Of a DNA stretch of 64,000 nt, positions 2,853-8,681 are shown one piece after another. This DNA comes from an uncultured Bacilli bacterium (lineage in GTDB: Bacteria > Bacillota_I > Bacilli_A > RF39 > UBA660): the NCBI GenBank assembly GCA_934098515.1, contig CAKOOK010000004.1:3483-67482 (forward strand). Reading direction: 5' to 3'. Position 1 is the first letter of the stretch. Each line of letters opens with the position of its first letter. Below the pieces are notes generated by a model that was not told the origin of the DNA, did not search any database, and was given only the letters and a program-made list of their open reading frames with translations. The position numbers were made by a program, and so were the translations under genes.

Positions 2853-3557
2853 TTAAATTTTTCTAGAATCAAGAGTTATAGTTTTTTCGACATTATCTTC
2901 AGTAGTTATTTTTAAATATATGTTTGGTAAATTGTTATCTATATTTATTTTACCGTAATTAAATAGTTCACTAACGCTTCTTTTATCCTTCCATGTGAAA
3001 TTAAGAATATTGGTTCCTCCAGATAATATAATTCTTTTATCATTTTGTTCATAATAATAAATTTCTATATTTTTAATTTCTGCGCCATCTGAAAAATTTA
3101 GAACACATGGTTTAAATATAATCTTTTTAGGCGATGTTATAATTAACCCACTATTGCAAACTAATTCATTTGATCTATATTCAAGTTCGTAAATATTGTT
3201 TTTATTAAAAGTATAAAGTGTATAAAAAAGTGAAAATATTATTATTACAAATACTATCAGAATAATTATTATAATTTTAAATTTATTTATTATTTTTTGT
3301 TTATTAAAATTTTCAAAAGCTAAATTAAAATAGTATTTTTTATTTTTTACATTATTATCTTCAAAAAAATAGTCTATATTAACATTATAAAATTTACAAA
3401 TTAAGATTAGTGTCTGGTAATCTGGAATACTTTTACCAGTTTCCCATCTACTTACTGCTTGTCTACTAAGGTATAGATTTCTTGCTAATTCATCTTGGGT
3501 TATATTATTTTTGATTCTAAGTTCTTTAAGTTTAGTACCAATTTCATTCAAACTCAT
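2853..3557 (-). CDS. membrane-anchored XRE-family HTH transcriptional regulator
   Basis: N-terminal HTH_3-like LKELRIKNNITQDELARNLYLSRQAVSRWETGKSIPD, one TM segment (IIIILIVFVIIIFSLFY), extracellular C-terminal domain. Confidence 0.8.
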   Translation of the reverse strand: MSLNEIGTKLKELRIKNNITQDELARNLYLSRQAVSRWETGKSIPDYQTLILICKFYNVNIDYFFEDNNVKNKKYYFNLAFENFNKQKIINKFKIIIIILIVFVIIIFSLFYTLYTFNKNNIYELEYRSNELVCNSGLIITSPKKIIFKPCVLNFSDGAEIKNIEIYYYEQNDKRIILSGGTNILNFTWKDKRSVSELFNYGKINIDNNLPNIYLKITTEDNVEKTITLDSRKI

Positions 3558-3633
3558 ATGTGTATCACCATATTTAATTATACACTAATCTTAAAATAAG
3601 TAACGCAATTTATAATTTACTGCATATTATTAG

Positions 3634-4560
3634 TTAAAAGTCATATGTTTCGTATAGTTCATTATCTATATAATATATGACTTTTTTATGTTCGTAATTA
3701 TTTTTTATAGACAGGTTTATTGTGTATATTACTTTTTCAATTAGATTAGATTCATAAAGGTCATTAAAGAGTTTTTTGTTCATATTTAATGAGATAAAAT
3801 CATTTTCCATTTCATAACTTATTTCTCTTACATCTTTTAAATAACTAATTAGGCTTGTTTCGTAAACGCTTTTACTAGCAAGCTCAGATAAGATGATTTC
3901 TACTTTATCACTTTTATCATTATTTATTAAAGTTACTGGTACATAGTAATAGTAATCTTTATATTTAGATAGATAATAAATAGTTGTTTTTGTAGTACCG
4001 ATAATATCTGTAATATTGTATATTTGATTAATTCCATAGCTTTTATCTATTATTTGAGGTATTTTTTCATTTGAATTGGGTAGTCTATCAAGAAGATTAC
4101 CTTCTACATAAATGGTTATTTTATTAATTCCATCAATGCTTGTATAAGTGTATACTAAGGAACTTATTAATTTTTTTTCATCTTCTTCATTAATAGTTAA
4201 AAGTTTTTTAGAAAAGTTAAGGGTTAATAAGCCATCATCTATTTTAAAGTAGAGGAGTTTAGTACCTTTAGGAATTACAGGTTTAAATCCGTCTGATAGA
4301 TAATCTTTCTTGTTAGAGCCATCTGTTAAATATTCAGTTATTTCTTTGATTTGATTATCTATATTAGTGTTTTTAGTTACTACAGAAACTCTTGATAATA
4401 AATTATTTTGATCTATTAAATAAACGATACTAAAATCAGTATTTTCATTTTGAATATAAGTTTTATCCTCTTTCTTCGTTGGAAATAAATAGACGATTAA
4501 TAAAATAATTAAACTAGATAATATTAAAAAAGTTCTTTTCTTAACCATTTTAATTAGCAT
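3634..4560 (-). CDS. gerM: GerM-like protein (two Germane-type domains), N-terminal membrane anchor
   Basis: Pattern ...VIPKGTKLLYFKIDDGLLTLNFSKKLL... repeated in the C-terminal half. Start chosen at MLIKMVKK, behind the gaggtgg RBS. Confidence 0.6.
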   Translation of the reverse strand: MLIKMVKKRTFLILSSLIILLIVYLFPTKKEDKTYIQNENTDFSIVYLIDQNNLLSRVSVVTKNTNIDNQIKEITEYLTDGSNKKDYLSDGFKPVIPKGTKLLYFKIDDGLLTLNFSKKLLTINEEDEKKLISSLVYTYTSIDGINKITIYVEGNLLDRLPNSNEKIPQIIDKSYGINQIYNITDIIGTTKTTIYYLSKYKDYYYYVPVTLINNDKSDKVEIILSELASKSVYETSLISYLKDVREISYEMENDFISLNMNKKLFNDLYESNLIEKVIYTINLSIKNNYEHKKVIYYIDNELYETYDF

Positions 4561-4587
4561 AATCCACCTCATTTAAATATATTCTTA

Positions 4588-4620
4588 TTAAAAATAAAAA
4601 GTCGTATATTAACGACTTTT
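4588..4620 (-). terminator. hairpin terminator downstream of the GerE-like gene (bidirectional shape)
   Basis: aaaagtcgt-atatta-acgactttt with A/T runs on both sides. Confidence 0.6.
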
Positions 4621-4825
4621 ATAGATTTATTTCTCCTAATTTCAGAAGTTCAATAATAGCACCACTACGCCCCTTAACATTCATTTTTTGCATGACATTT
4701 GATATATGATTTCTTACGGTTTTTTCGCTTATTCCTAGATAAGTACTTATTTCTTTAGTAGATTTATTTAATATAAGGAGTTCAAAAACTTCTCTTTCAC
4801 GTGCTGTTAATATACCTTTAGACAT
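4619..4825 (-). CDS. gerE: LuxR/GerE-family single-domain HTH regulator
   Basis: 68 aa. LTAREREVFELL...STKEISTYLGISEKTVRNHISNVMQKMNV is a typical GerE/LuxR C-terminal HTH. Confidence 0.8.
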   Translation of the reverse strand: MSKGILTAREREVFELLILNKSTKEISTYLGISEKTVRNHISNVMQKMNVKGRSGAIIELLKLGEINL

Positions 4826-4890
4826 ATTTCCCTCTCTTTCAACTTCTCATAATATTTTATGACACAATTAAAGAGAGAGTGATTATTAGA

Positions 4891-5391
4891 TTATTGGTAC
4901 TTAACAGTTATATATTGTTTTTTGTCAAATTCTTTTTGAATTGTTCGCATAATTTGATTAGCTTTTTCATAACTACCATCCTTAGTTGGAATAGTAACGT
5001 TTATTTTATCTCCACTTATTTTTATAAATGATTTTATTTTATATTCTTTTAAAATTAATTCTTCTAAAGAGGTTTCTTTTCCTTTAGTTAAGTTAATTGA
5101 TAATAGTTTTTCATATGCATTATTTTTATCTTCACTAGAGGCTGTTGTATCTAATAATGTTTCTTGTAATTTAGCCATTTCTGCTAAGACTTCTTCGTCA
5201 TTACTTACCCTAAGAGCTGCTAAATTATCTTCATTATTTGTTTTAATTGTTGTTTTTTCACTGGAAGTATCACTTGATTTAATTAAGTTAGATAAACTTT
5301 CACCTGGCATAGATACATAATATACGCTTAAAACTAAAATAATACTAAATAAAGTTAGAAACCATAATTTCTGTTTATTAATCATATTCAA
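4891..5391 (-). CDS. membrane-anchored protein, SpoIIIAH-like (tentative)
   Basis: N-terminal TM segment; low-complexity linker; C-terminal region resembles SpoIIIAH/YscJ-like proteins (LLSINLTKGKE...IKSFIKISGDKINVTI). By eye only. Confidence 0.4.
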   Translation of the reverse strand: MNMINKQKLWFLTLFSIILVLSVYYVSMPGESLSNLIKSSDTSSEKTTIKTNNEDNLAALRVSNDEEVLAEMAKLQETLLDTTASSEDKNNAYEKLLSINLTKGKETSLEELILKEYKIKSFIKISGDKINVTIPTKDGSYEKANQIMRTIQKEFDKKQYITVKYQ

Positions 5392-5499
5392 TTCTCCTTG
5401 CTAGTAAATTATATTTAACTTGTACTAAAATATTCTATAAAATAGTTATAAAAGTTAAATATAGTGCTCTTAAAAATATTCTAAATAACATAATTTTTA

Positions 5500-5528
5500 C
5501 CTCCCTTCATTAGTTATTGTTGTAAGAA
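5500..5528. repeat. left arm of a perfect 29-bp inverted repeat (imperfect extension to ~5550)
   Basis: cctcccttcattagttattgttgtaagaa is the exact reverse complement of 6329..6357. Confidence 0.95.
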
Positions 5529-5551
5529 GAATCTCTATTTCCTTTTTTTTA

Positions 5552-5580
5552 TTGAAATATTTTTATTATTTAGATAAAAT
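5552..5580 (+). promoter_or_regulatory. sigmaA-type promoter inside the IR-bounded segment
   Basis: TTGAAA (5552..5557), 17-nt spacer, TAAAAT (5575..5580). Confidence 0.55.
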
Positions 5581-5599: not shown

Positions 5600-6274
5600 A
5601 TGGATAAGTTATGTTATATATTTTTGTACTTTGTGTTTTATTCTATGATCGGATATGTGTGTGAAGTATTTTATGTTTATTTAGGTGATAAGAAATGGGT
5701 TAATAGGGGTTTTTTACATGGACCTTATATTCCTATATATGGAAATGGAGCAATGATTGTTAGTTTAGCTCTTATGCATGTTAAGAAAGATTCTTTTATT
5801 ATATTTTTAGTTGGATTAGTTTTATGCTCACTTTTAGAGTATATTACTAGTTATGCTATGGAAAAGATATTTCATAATAGATGGTGGGATTATTCAGAAA
5901 GAAAATATAATTTAAATGGTAGAGTATGTTTACAAAATTCAGTTTTATTTGGGTTAGGATCAGTAGCCATTATTTATGTATTTAATCCATTATTTAATAA
6001 GTTATATAATGCGTTAGGTGCTAAGGCAATATTGTGTGTGTCTATTATTTTATTTGTTGTAATGTTAATAGATTTTTCTGTAAGTTTTTTTGAAGCTGTT
6101 AAAGTATCTAATATTGCTAGTCATTTGGATAAATTTATGGAGGAATTTGAAAAGAAGAAAGAGTCTACTAAACGTATTAAGATTAGACTTATGGAGGCAT
6201 ACCCATATTTAGTTAAGAGAAATTTTAGTTTTTTAGATAAAGTTAAAAAGTATAAAAAGAAGAGTAAAAATTAG
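5600..6274 (+). CDS. polytopic membrane protein (putative ABC-transporter type IV / CmpB-like family)
   Basis: Start at ATG 5600 behind the aggagg RBS. Motifs GPYIPIYGNGA and ...NRWWDYS...NGRVCL typical of that family; about 5-6 TM segments. Confidence 0.6.
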   Translation: MDKLCYIFLYFVFYSMIGYVCEVFYVYLGDKKWVNRGFLHGPYIPIYGNGAMIVSLALMHVKKDSFIIFLVGLVLCSLLEYITSYAMEKIFHNRWWDYSERKYNLNGRVCLQNSVLFGLGSVAIIYVFNPLFNKLYNALGAKAILCVSIILFVVMLIDFSVSFFEAVKVSNIASHLDKFMEEFEKKKESTKRIKIRLMEAYPYLVKRNFSFLDKVKKYKKKSKN

Positions 6275-6328
6275 TTAAATTAAAAAATAACTAATTTTTT
6301 TTAAAAATAAAAAAGGAAATCGGGGATG

Positions 6329-6357
6329 TTCTTACAACAATAACTAATGAAGGGAGG
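6329..6357. repeat. right arm of the perfect 29-bp inverted repeat; contains the RBS of the exporter gene
   Basis: ttcttacaacaataactaatgaagggagg is the reverse complement of 5500..5528. Confidence 0.95.
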
Positions 6358-6366
6358 AAAAGATGT

Positions 6367-8370
6367 TTGAAAAATATAGTTGTAAGACAAGAGGATGAGG
6401 CTGACTGTGGAGCGTGCTGTTTATTATCTGTAATTAAGCATTATAATGGGTTTATTCCACTGGAATATGTTAAGGTTGATACACTTACTACAAAAGAAGG
6501 TACTACCTTTTATAATTTGAAAGTAGCTGCTGAAAAGTATGGATTTGAAGTTAGCGGGAAGAAAGAATATGATCTTAGTAAGATTAAACTACCTGCTATT
6601 GCTCAAATTAAAATTAATAATTTTTATCATTTTGTAGTAATTGTTAAAATAGACAAAGACACCATTATACTTATGGATCCTGCCATAGGTAAAAATAAGT
6701 TAAAACTATCTAAATTTAGTGAAATGTTTACAGGATATATTTTAGAATTATTCCCAATATCTAACATTGTAAATATAAAAGTGCAATCACTGTTTTTAAA
6801 ATTATTAAAAAATGTAATCCTTCAAAATAAATGTTTATTTATAAAAATATTTGTTTTAACTTTGGTAATATGTTTATTGCTTATAGTAAGTACACTTTTA
6901 GTTAATAGTATATTTTCGCTTTCATCGTTTAATTTAATAATTTTAATAATACTTATTTTAAGTAAAATAGTTATTAATTATTTAAAAAATGTTTATGTCT
7001 TTAAATTAAATAAAAGTTTAAATGAAAGTTTGTCTACTGATTATATTAGAAAAATATTTTTCTTACCCTTTAAATATTTGTGTTTAAGAAAGGAAGGAGA
7101 TTTAGTAAGCAGATTTGATGATATAAATGTCATTAAGGAAAACATATCGGTAACAATAGTAGAGTCTTTAGTAAACTTTCTAATTATTTTAAGTACATCT
7201 ATTATGCTATATATTTTAAATAAAAGAATATTTATGATAGTAATTATAATAACACTATTTGTATTATTAATAGTTTATTTTCATAATAAAAAGATATATC
7301 AAGATTTAGAAAGAACTATAGATAGTAATACTTCATTAACTGATACAGTAATAAGTTTTATATCTAATATATGGACGGTTAAAATAATTACTGATATAAA
7401 ATATTGTTTTAATAAGATAAAAGATATCATTATTGATAATAGTAATCAAAATTATTCTTTAAATAAAAAAATCGCATTAAATGAATTATTTATTAGTTCT
7501 TATACAGAGTTAGTTTTGATATTAATTATTGTTTTTAATGTTTATTTAAAATTAAATATGGGATCTTTATTATCATTTATTTTTATTAATAATTATTTTA
7601 TATCTGGTGTTAGTTACTTTTGTACTATGATGCCAAATATTATGTTTTTTAAAAGTGCTTACATGAGAATTAATAGTATTTATTATTTAGAAGATGAAAA
7701 TTATAAAGGTGAGTCTTTTATAAATGGCAATATATTAATTAAAAATTTAACGTATAGTATAGGACTTAATAATGTATTTAATAATTTTTCTTTAAATATA
7801 AATATGGGAGATAATATTTTAATTAAAGGGTCTAATGGGAGTGGAAAGTCATCTTTATTAAATATGTTTTATGGAATAATAGATGATTATGAAGGCTCTA
7901 TAAGTGTAGGTGGTATACCTATAAAAGATTTTAGTTTAAAGTCTCTTAGAAGTCATATTTCTTATGTTAATCAGAACCAGAAATTGATTCCAGGAACACT
8001 ATTGGAGAATATTATTTTAGGTGGTAAATTAGAGGAGGACAAACTTAAAATAATTGAAAAGATGCTTAATTTAGATAGAATATATCAAACTAAGTATAAT
8101 GGACTTAATTCAGTCATAAGGGATAATTTTAGTGGAGGTGAAGTTCAAAAAATTATACTTGCTAGAGCTTTATATAAAGATTTTGATATTCTCCTTTTAG
8201 ATGAAGCATTATCTCAAATAGATATTTCTGAAAGACGAAAGATTCTTCAAAATATTTGCGAGTATTATAAGACGAAAACTATTATAATGGTAAGTCATAA
8301 TAAAGAATATTATAAGTTTGATAAAATTATTTTCTTAAACAATAGAAAGGAGAAGGTTTATGTTAAGTAA
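6367..8370 (+). CDS. bacteriocin-processing ABC exporter with N-terminal C39 peptidase domain (SunT/LagD/ComA type)
   Basis: C39 catalytic context QEDEADCGACCL, YHFVVI, MDPA; six-TM domain; Walker A GSNGSGKSS; signature FSGGEVQK; Walker B ILLLDEA. TTG start. Confidence 0.9.
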   Translation: MKNIVVRQEDEADCGACCLLSVIKHYNGFIPLEYVKVDTLTTKEGTTFYNLKVAAEKYGFEVSGKKEYDLSKIKLPAIAQIKINNFYHFVVIVKIDKDTIILMDPAIGKNKLKLSKFSEMFTGYILELFPISNIVNIKVQSLFLKLLKNVILQNKCLFIKIFVLTLVICLLLIVSTLLVNSIFSLSSFNLIILIILILSKIVINYLKNVYVFKLNKSLNESLSTDYIRKIFFLPFKYLCLRKEGDLVSRFDDINVIKENISVTIVESLVNFLIILSTSIMLYILNKRIFMIVIIITLFVLLIVYFHNKKIYQDLERTIDSNTSLTDTVISFISNIWTVKIITDIKYCFNKIKDIIIDNSNQNYSLNKKIALNELFISSYTELVLILIIVFNVYLKLNMGSLLSFIFINNYFISGVSYFCTMMPNIMFFKSAYMRINSIYYLEDENYKGESFINGNILIKNLTYSIGLNNVFNNFSLNINMGDNILIKGSNGSGKSSLLNMFYGIIDDYEGSISVGGIPIKDFSLKSLRSHISYVNQNQKLIPGTLLENIILGGKLEEDKLKIIEKMLNLDRIYQTKYNGLNSVIRDNFSGGEVQKIILARALYKDFDILLLDEALSQIDISERRKILQNICEYYKTKTIIMVSHNKEYYKFDKIIFLNNRKEKVYVK

Positions 8371-8491
8371 TCAAGAATTAGCTTTGGTTAGTGGTGGCGC
8401 TATTAAGTGGACTATTGGCATTGTACTAGGAGCTATTGGAGCATTTTTAGCTGGTGTACTAGATGGTTATTTAAGGCCTAAATGTAATTAA
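8360..8491 (+). CDS. double-glycine-leader peptide 1 (43 aa; predicted 30-aa mature bacteriocin-like peptide)
   Basis: Own translation: MLSNQELALVSGG|AIKWTIGIVLGAIGAFLAGVLDGYLRPKCN. RBS aaggag; ATG overlaps the exporter stop. Not in the supplied ORF track. Confidence 0.75.
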   Translation: MLSNQELALVSGGAIKWTIGIVLGAIGAFLAGVLDGYLRPKCN

Positions 8492-8637
8492 TGAAAGATG
8501 AAGAATTAGTACTTATTAAAGGTGGAATAACTACAACACTTTTAAACTCTGTAGCTAGAATTATCTCAGTTATTTTTAATATTGGTAAGTCTATCGGAAC
8601 ATCTATAAGAATGATCAGATCTAAGACAAGTTGTTAG
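8491..8637 (+). CDS. double-glycine-leader peptide 2 (48 aa; predicted 36-aa cationic mature peptide)
   Basis: Own translation: MKDEELVLIKGG|ITTTLLNSVARIISVIFNIGKSIGTSIRMIRSKTSC. TAATG stop-start overlap with peptide 1. Not in the supplied ORF track. Confidence 0.7.
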   Translation: MKDEELVLIKGGITTTLLNSVARIISVIFNIGKSIGTSIRMIRSKTSC

Positions 8638-8681
8638 TTACAAACTGATATAATTTTGTTATAATTATATTGGGTGCTGTA

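Follow-up and report, generated by a model that had tools for sequence, protein, structure and literature searches.

The DNA analysed here is a stretch of 64 kb (the window; 28% GC) from an uncultured Bacilli bacterium. It carries a gene for an ATP-binding cassette (ABC) exporter with a C39 peptidase domain, followed directly by two small genes for peptides with double-glycine (GG) leaders. We propose that the three genes form one operon that makes a two-peptide bacteriocin resembling those of class IIb, and we assign this reading a probability of roughly 0.6. As judged from the sequence, the pair most likely represents a two-peptide bacteriocin family that is new in sequence. A preliminary description of the window had already suggested a class IIb-like pair. 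The genes, their leaders, the exporter, a match of peptide 1 to the class IIb model TIGR03949, the pairing of the two genes, the GxxxG motifs and cysteines, and the predicted helices agree with that suggestion; the lack of an operon immunity gene does not. The elements of the operon are as follows.

6367..8370, + strand: exporter gene, 667 amino acids (aa), TTG start, with C39 peptidase, ABC transmembrane and ATPase domains
8347..8352, + strand: AAGGAG, the Shine-Dalgarno sequence of peptide 1 as read from the sequence, inside the 3' end of the exporter gene
8360..8491, + strand: peptide 1 precursor gene, 43 aa, ATG start, stop codon at 8489..8491
8360..8398, + strand: leader of peptide 1, MLSNQELALVSGG
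8399..8488, + strand: predicted mature part of peptide 1, 30 aa, AIKWTIGIVLGAIGAFLAGVLDGYLRPKCN
8491..8637, + strand: peptide 2 precursor gene, 48 aa, ATG start, stop codon at 8635..8637
8491..8526, + strand: leader of peptide 2, MKDEELVLIKGG
8527..8634, + strand: predicted mature part of peptide 2, 36 aa, ITTTLLNSVARIISVIFNIGKSIGTSIRMIRSKTSC

The ATG of peptide 1 lies 11 nucleotides (nt) within the 3' end of the exporter gene and 7 nt past the AAGGAG. The open reading frames (ORFs) of the two peptides overlap by one base in the sequence TAATG, and peptide 2 has no Shine-Dalgarno sequence at normal spacing. Because of these two features, the translation of peptide 2 is probably coupled to that of peptide 1. 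The position of both ORFs directly behind the exporter and their overlaps are as the preliminary description had claimed, and the peptide sequences it gave match the ORF translations exactly. The leaders it had recognised are also complete. Every consensus position is filled in both peptides (L/M at −12, E at −8, L at −7, V/I at −4 and GG at −2/−1), and the predicted cleavage after GG gives leaders of 13 residues for peptide 1 and 12 residues for peptide 2.

Class IIb bacteriocins are recognised by neighbouring genes within a single operon, GG leaders, an ABC transporter of their own and helix pairing through GxxxG, as well as by cationic helical peptides and an immunity gene in the same operon (Nissen-Meyer et al., PMC2850506). 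From this list, the window has both peptide genes side by side in a predicted operon, a dedicated C39 ABC transporter gene directly upstream that overlaps the gene of peptide 1, and GxxxG in both peptides, with one such motif per peptide kept family-wide.

Both small ORFs are genuine genes under selection. A six-frame scan of the 64 kb for the pattern [ED][LIVM]xx[LIVM]xGG, with a Met upstream and 15–80 residues downstream, returned only these two ORFs, against a mean of 0.01 in 100 first-order Markov shuffles. For comparison, an ATG ORF of at least 43 aa appears per 400 nt in approximately 4% of shuffles at 28% GC. Public protein collections yielded homologues of both peptides that are 77–100% identical, from human-gut metagenomes and 'Clostridium sp. 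CAG:533', and a single distant homologue of peptide 2 (P0012, 55% identity). Selection was estimated by the Nei-Gojobori method over nine syntenic loci, for which the synonymous divergence (dS) of the peptides is about 1. The ratio of nonsynonymous to synonymous divergence (dN/dS) is 0.12 for peptide 1, 0.15 for peptide 2, 0.12 for nth and 0.22 for the exporter. The constraint on the peptides thus equals that on nth and exceeds that on the exporter. Chance ORFs are ruled out by the shuffles of the leader scan together with the dN/dS values. The mean identity across these loci is 67% for the exporter and 80% for the peptides; the exporter is the fastest-evolving gene of the neighbourhood, though its presumed cargo peptides are better conserved. 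The preliminary description had called the two genes unannotated, which needs a qualification. Public gene callers call both in homologous contigs, and NCBI already names a homologue of peptide 1 'class IIb bacteriocin, lactobin A/cerein 7B family'; homologues of peptide 2 are listed only as 'unknown' or 'hypothetical'.

The selection is not spread evenly over the precursors. The ratio of nonsynonymous to synonymous differences (pN/pS) is 0.16 for the mature parts of peptides 1 and 2, 0.39 for the leader of peptide 1 and 0.84 for the leader of peptide 2. Mature parts that are more constrained than the leaders fit a removable targeting signal. The two products could instead be small membrane proteins that stay in the producer membrane with the GG unprocessed, for example as transporter subunits or regulators; both are single hydrophobic or amphipathic helices, and their genes are translationally coupled to a transporter gene. 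The faster evolution of the leaders argues against this explanation, as do the full leader consensus kept across hundreds of members while the remaining leader is variable, and the intact protease site of the exporter. We consider retention in the membrane highly improbable.

An exported two-peptide bacteriocin would depend on the exporter, which has the architecture of a peptidase-containing ABC transporter (PCAT), that is, an N-terminal C39 domain with Cys, His and Asp, a six-helix ABC membrane domain and an ATPase. The Pfam matches are Peptidase_C39 (7e-31), ABC_membrane (2e-14) and ABC_tran (1.5e-26). The exporter matches TIGR01193 with 275.5 bits (1e-81), below the cut-off of 523.85, and NF045998 with 270 bits (3.5e-80), also below the curated cut-off. 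With its score under the TIGR01193 cut-off, it is a divergent PCAT by architecture and not by the NCBI equivalog rule. The nearest solved relatives over the full length are ComA (8hf7, 2.6e-68) and PCAT1 (4ry2, 5.6e-63). Q8 and C14 of the exporter (QEDEADCG) align to QVDQMDCG of ComA, the His in FYHFVV aligns to LLHYYV, and the Asp in LMDP aligns to IADP. We take these aligned Q, C, H and D to be the catalytic residues of ComA. The ATPase motifs are GSNGSGKS (Walker A), FSGGE (signature) and LLLDEA (Walker B). On these residues and motifs, the exporter is predicted to be competent as both protease and ATPase. Its start codon varies, being TTG in the window and ATG in relatives. A genome scan with the exporter gave a single true relative (locus L001); its eight further loci held generic ABC ATPases and were disregarded.

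The relationship to ComA raises the question of whether the peptides are double-glycine pheromones like ComC or BlpC that are sensed by a kinase. Pheromones of these types have identical leaders and PCAT exporters, and ComA is the nearest solved relative of the exporter. We found no histidine kinase or response regulator in the window between 2.8 and 13.8 kb or in any related locus examined. The mature peptides of 30–36 residues are membrane-helix-like with a conserved GxxxG, and two families are kept together, which pheromone systems do not require. A pheromone role is thus very unlikely.

The predicted products have the properties expected of a bacteriocin pair. Mature peptide 1 has an average mass of 3130.8 Da, a net charge of +2 and a grand average of hydropathy of 0.94. 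Mature peptide 2 has an average mass of 3895.6 Da and a net charge of +5 and is amphipathic, with an 18-residue hydrophobic moment of 0.66. These values bear out the earlier view that the mature parts are small and hydrophobic or amphipathic. The GxxxG motifs are GIVLG (G7xxxG11) and GVLDG (G19xxxG23) in peptide 1 and GKSIG (G20xxxG24) in peptide 2. Each peptide has a single cysteine, Cys29 in mature peptide 1 and the C-terminal Cys36 in mature peptide 2. The preliminary description had pointed to GIVLG, GKSIG and one cysteine near each C-terminus; all are present, and one GxxxG and one cysteine per peptide are conserved across the respective family. AlphaFold predicts a single long helix for each precursor, spanning residues 4–38 in peptide 1 (predicted local distance difference test score (pLDDT) 80), where the RPKCN tail is non-helical, and residues 2–46 in peptide 2 (pLDDT 81). 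An intermolecular disulfide may form between the two peptides, as suggested by the cysteine that is kept family-wide in each partner. In the searchable literature, we found no two-peptide bacteriocin with an interchain disulfide.

Peptide 1 matches the NCBIfam model TIGR03949 (class IIb bacteriocin, lactobin A/cerein 7B family) over residues 2–37 with 27.4 bits (cut-off 21.5, E 2.2e-6). Its distant relatives at other loci score 14–25 bits on the same model. Peptide-1-type sequences as a whole consist of the GG, a W/G-rich stretch and then the motif G-x-x-[DN]-G-x-x-R-P-x(1,2)-C, which occurs in 14 distinct sequences; one GxxxG and one cysteine in the RPx(1,2)C tail are kept in 14 of 14. Two peptide 1 homologues, P0023 and P0024, have altered C-terminal ends in which the RPKC tail is gone (…LDGQIKLK; a longer unrelated tail). 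Contigs that carry P0023 reach 220 kb in length, which hints that peptide 1 has occasionally decayed in certain strains.

Peptide 2 reached no curated model in Pfam or NCBIfam. The best matches were DUF5592 (E 0.11) and NF046113 (14.2 bits, cut-off 40). A profile built from close homologues of peptide 2 and searched against 1.84 billion representative proteins nevertheless found at least 171 clusters at 50% identity (E ≤ 1e-3), nearly all of 49–56 aa, and a further profile search gave 340 clusters at 90% identity. Where these clusters are named at all, it is only as 'hypothetical protein' or 'unknown', for example in a 'Mollicutes bacterium' metagenome-assembled genome. The family consensus is xxLxxxELxxIxGG-AxIxxTLLNSIxRxxxxxxxLGRxxGSSIRRxxxxxxC, and none of the 60 aligned members departs from the GG, one GxxxG or the C-terminal Cys. 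When these 60 members were compared with Pfam and NCBIfam, a minority gave weak matches to bacteriocin models, which probably arise through the leader. In a profile search of solved structures, the best match of peptide 2 was the leader of CtA, the substrate of PCAT1, and it was weak (E 0.15). Paralogy of the two peptides was considered and rejected; hhalign aligned the two families over columns 2–29 only, so the leader alone is common and the mature parts are not paralogous. No further copy of either peptide is present within the window.

The two types occur as a pair well beyond the window. We counted distant loci whose contig includes the region upstream of a peptide-2-type gene, which cover about a dozen lineages. 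A peptide-1-type gene lies directly before the peptide-2-type gene in L001, L036, L014, L025, L026, L027, L038, L039–L041, L042, L043, L044–L046 and L049, and a fused gene call (P0168) also carries the two types in this order. Wherever the contig reaches far enough upstream, a C39 ABC exporter that is 30–46% identical to that of the window precedes the pair. L047 has a partial peptide-1-type copy at the contig edge. Two loci are exceptions, L048 and L016. L048 has a peptide-2-type gene without peptide 1. In L016 (1636..1785, P0011), a 131-nt deletion between two GGTGG sites removes mature peptide 1 and fuses the leader of peptide 1 to mature peptide 2. The coverage of this contig is 2.8×, and the fusion may reflect either a deletion that occurs rarely in nature or an error of the assembly.

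The chromosomal position of the module is conserved as well. In the nine syntenic loci, GerM, GerE and SpoIIIAH-like genes lie on the − strand, and the order on the + strand is PF06541, exporter, peptide 1, peptide 2, cca, dnaD and nth. At deep divergence, where SpoIIIAH is 41–45%, the exporter 30–34% and the peptides 39–48% identical, the module is still found on the GerM/GerE/SpoIIIAH side; in L025, L026, L047 and L049 it adjoins rpsU instead. The neighbourhood and the elements upstream of the exporter are as follows.

2853..5391, − strand: sporulation-type neighbourhood with an HTH_3 membrane regulator, a GerM-like (Germane) protein, a 68-aa GerE-family regulator and a SpoIIIAH-like protein
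5437..5493, − strand: small ORF of 17–18 aa, MLFRIFLRALYLTFITIL, upstream of the SpoIIIAH-like gene
5493..5557, − strand: left repeat arm, facing the SpoIIIAH-like gene
5600..6274, + strand: PF06541 (ABC_trans_CmpB) multi-pass membrane protein, Pfam 3.3e-50
6300..6364, + strand: right repeat arm, the conserved leader region of the exporter

The neighbourhood at 2853..5391 indicates a spore-forming, very low-GC member of the Bacillota. The SpoIIIAH-like gene stands alone, with no other spoIIIA genes before it.

The PF06541 gene lies between the two arms of a 65-nt inverted repeat, which are 85% complementary. Its 27-nt perfect core, CTTACAACAATAACTAATGAAGGGAGG, occupies 6331..6357 in the right arm and includes the GGGAGG ribosome-binding site of the exporter. 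All ten aligned loci keep the right arm region, among them L036, whose exporter is 46% identical to that of the window. The repeat as a whole is kept in every locus of the window clade and in L036, where both arms carry the same TGA-to-TAG change. The repeat is absent from more distant lineages that carry the module. The region 6300..6364 probably holds the operon promoter or operator and the 5' untranslated region (5'UTR). The left arm suggests regulation shared with the exporter operon, and the simplest reading of the repeat is a duplicated promoter/operator and 5'UTR that would co-regulate two divergent units. The MLFRIFLRALYLTFITIL ORF starts 8–10 nt past the GGGAGG of the left arm; nine loci preserve it at the level of the amino acids, though with substitutions, and L036 lacks it. 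An invertible segment finds no support, with the same orientation in 18 of 18 assemblies that carry the repeat, although assemblies report the majority form only. No convincing sporulation sigma-factor promoter was recognised in the shared element when it was compared by eye with consensus sequences.

This setting leads to a different view of the pair, as a secreted developmental or self-directed system tied to sporulation, of the cannibalism type or produced by the mother cell, and belonging to the core biology of the clade. The GerM, GerE and SpoIIIAH-like neighbourhood is kept as far as L027, L038 and L043. The near-identical repeat arms stand before both the exporter and the unit of small ORF and SpoIIIAH-like gene, with the same change in both arms of L036; the missing immunity gene and the strong purifying selection on the mature peptides would fit as well. 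The neighbourhood alone is no proof of co-regulation, and the promoter comparison, the absence of the repeat from distant carriers of the module and the rpsU neighbour in four loci count against such a tie. A membrane-active pair of this kind would also still act like a class IIb bacteriocin. We regard the sporulation-linked role as unlikely. Its most elaborate form would be an ancient, hitherto undescribed two-peptide system of uncultured low-GC Bacillota, joined by a disulfide at the conserved C-terminal cysteines, without dedicated immunity, co-regulated with the SpoIIIAH-like gene through the duplicated upstream element and linked to development as part of the core genome; taken as a whole, this is decidedly doubtful.

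For a class IIb-like bacteriocin, an immunity protein would be expected in the operon. The preliminary description had noted that no immunity gene follows the peptides, and indeed cca is next, starting 44 nt past peptide 2. It had named the PF06541 protein upstream as the only candidate, and here the results are divided. The window clade and the loci L036, L038, L043 and L049 have this gene beside the exporter. It is absent in L025, L026 and L027, and in the window it is separated from the exporter by an AT-rich hairpin with a T-run at approximately 6271..6302, past its stop codon. As PF06541 lies within the same conserved gene order, its adjacency may reflect shared ancestry alone. We found no function for PF06541 in the searchable literature. 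The only genes common to all related loci are the exporter and the two peptides.

In most of the distant relatives, a protein of approximately 140–150 aa with one N-terminal membrane helix is encoded between the exporter and peptide 1, at the following positions.

L026, 5420..5854: membrane protein of approximately 145 aa
L027, 5419..5835: the same
L039, 4001..4450: the same
L043, 4392..4832: the same
L044, 404..838: the same
L049, 4386..4835: the same

Its matches to NF045999 (the MAG1140 family) are full-length and weak (E 3.7e-4 and 0.064), and the window clade has no MAG1140-like gene. This protein could be a miniature accessory or immunity protein. Three loci have a leaderless peptide of 53–56 aa directly past peptide 2 (L026, 6143..6310; L039, 4765..4926; L040, 1063..1224). 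It has a membrane helix and a peptide-2-like C-terminus (GRxxGxxI...C), and nothing comparable is found in the window. It might confer immunity as a decoy or form a third component.

Several observations weigh against the assignment to class IIb. There is no immunity gene in the operon, where peptide 2 is followed by cca, and none is conserved beside the operon across the related loci. Because this hallmark was looked for in the operon and not found, we do not file the system as a proven member of class IIb. The window clade also has no HlyD-type or other accessory protein. Mature peptide 1 alone gives no match to TIGR03949; the match of the precursor therefore rests on the leader and the glycine-rich mature N-terminus, and its membership in this family is, on the sequence, generic and not close. 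The profile search of solved structures returned nothing for peptide 1, and mature peptide 2 matched no solved class IIb peptide. Neither peptide was found in plasmid records by tblastn. The conserved location looks like old vertical inheritance at one chromosomal position and not like an accessory island. Many bacteriocin loci are patchy, mobile and diversifying, and a module under purifying selection differs from them. Since vertical inheritance is atypical for bacteriocins, other roles stay open. The formation of a disulfide is uncertain in the environment of a strict anaerobe. Finally, the leaders have 12–13 residues, where 15–30 are typical of class IIb (PMC2850506).

If the operon does make a two-peptide bacteriocin, its transcription would begin from the conserved stretch that directly precedes the exporter. 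Peptide 1 would be translated from its own Shine-Dalgarno sequence and peptide 2 by coupling at the TAATG, yielding roughly equal amounts of both. The C39 domain of the exporter would recognise both leaders of 12–13 residues and cut past the GG, and the transporter would export the mature peptides, a 30-residue hydrophobic helix and a 36-residue cationic amphipathic helix. By analogy with lactococcin G and the plantaricins, the helices would pack through the single conserved GxxxG in the target membrane and cause leakage. A covalent link between the two may form through their conserved C-terminal cysteines, which would give a heterodimer of 7024.4 Da.

The downstream limit of the operon is marked by one further element.

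8637..8665, + strand: promoter-like site GTTACA-17 nt-TG-TATAAT with an extended −10, whose first base is also the final base of the stop codon of peptide 2

The site is kept in all ten aligned loci, so cca probably has its own promoter; 8637..8665 is probably the boundary at which the peptide operon gives way to the separate transcription of cca. No terminator was detected past peptide 2. The promoter/terminator scan is uninformative at 28% GC (49 sites against 45.8 expected). A search of the 64 kb with all Rfam families at gathering thresholds gave no tRNA, riboswitch, T-box or other known RNA.

It is routine to flag GG-leader peptides beside a C39 exporter as putative bacteriocins, and the finding is unsurprising in kind. 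If the pair is active, the two-peptide bacteriocins would gain a new, widespread sequence family, from uncultured gut Bacillota with reduced genomes, about whose ecology hardly anything has been learned. Knowledge of class IIb would then be extended in three respects that also offer compact scaffolds, namely the conserved cysteine in each partner, the minimal leaders of 12–13 residues and the missing immunity gene. The vertical inheritance in the core genome raises the question of whether the pair serves the producer's own biology.

Among known systems, ComC and BlpC share the leader type and the exporter type with the window; the window peptides differ in being longer, helix-like with GxxxG and a fixed pair, with no sensor kinase or regulator nearby. 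ComA of S. pneumoniae and PCAT1 of C. thermocellum have the same three-domain layout as the exporter and align with it over the full length, and the residues aligned to Q, C, H and D of ComA are kept. Unlike these two, the window exporter has a membrane-type peptide pair as its predicted cargo, and it scores below all NCBIfam subfamily cut-offs. The Mycoplasma exporter Mbov_0121 (NF045998) is a further likeness, as the score on its model is near that on the general bacteriocin exporter model. The approximately 145-aa protein of the relatives is weakly similar to Mycoplasma MAG1140 (NF045999), well below the cut-offs, and its gene is absent from the window clade; we found nothing on the cargo of the Mbov_0121/MAG1140 system in the searchable literature. 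The class IIb systems (lactococcin G, plantaricin EF/JK, lactobin A/cerein 7B) resemble the locus in their two precursor genes, GG leaders, C39 transporter and helical, cationic GxxxG peptides. Compared with them, the locus has shorter leaders, no operon immunity gene, no accessory protein and mature parts without detectable similarity to any characterised class IIb peptide. It is further set apart by the single cysteine that each peptide keeps family-wide and by its chromosomal, syntenic and vertically inherited position.

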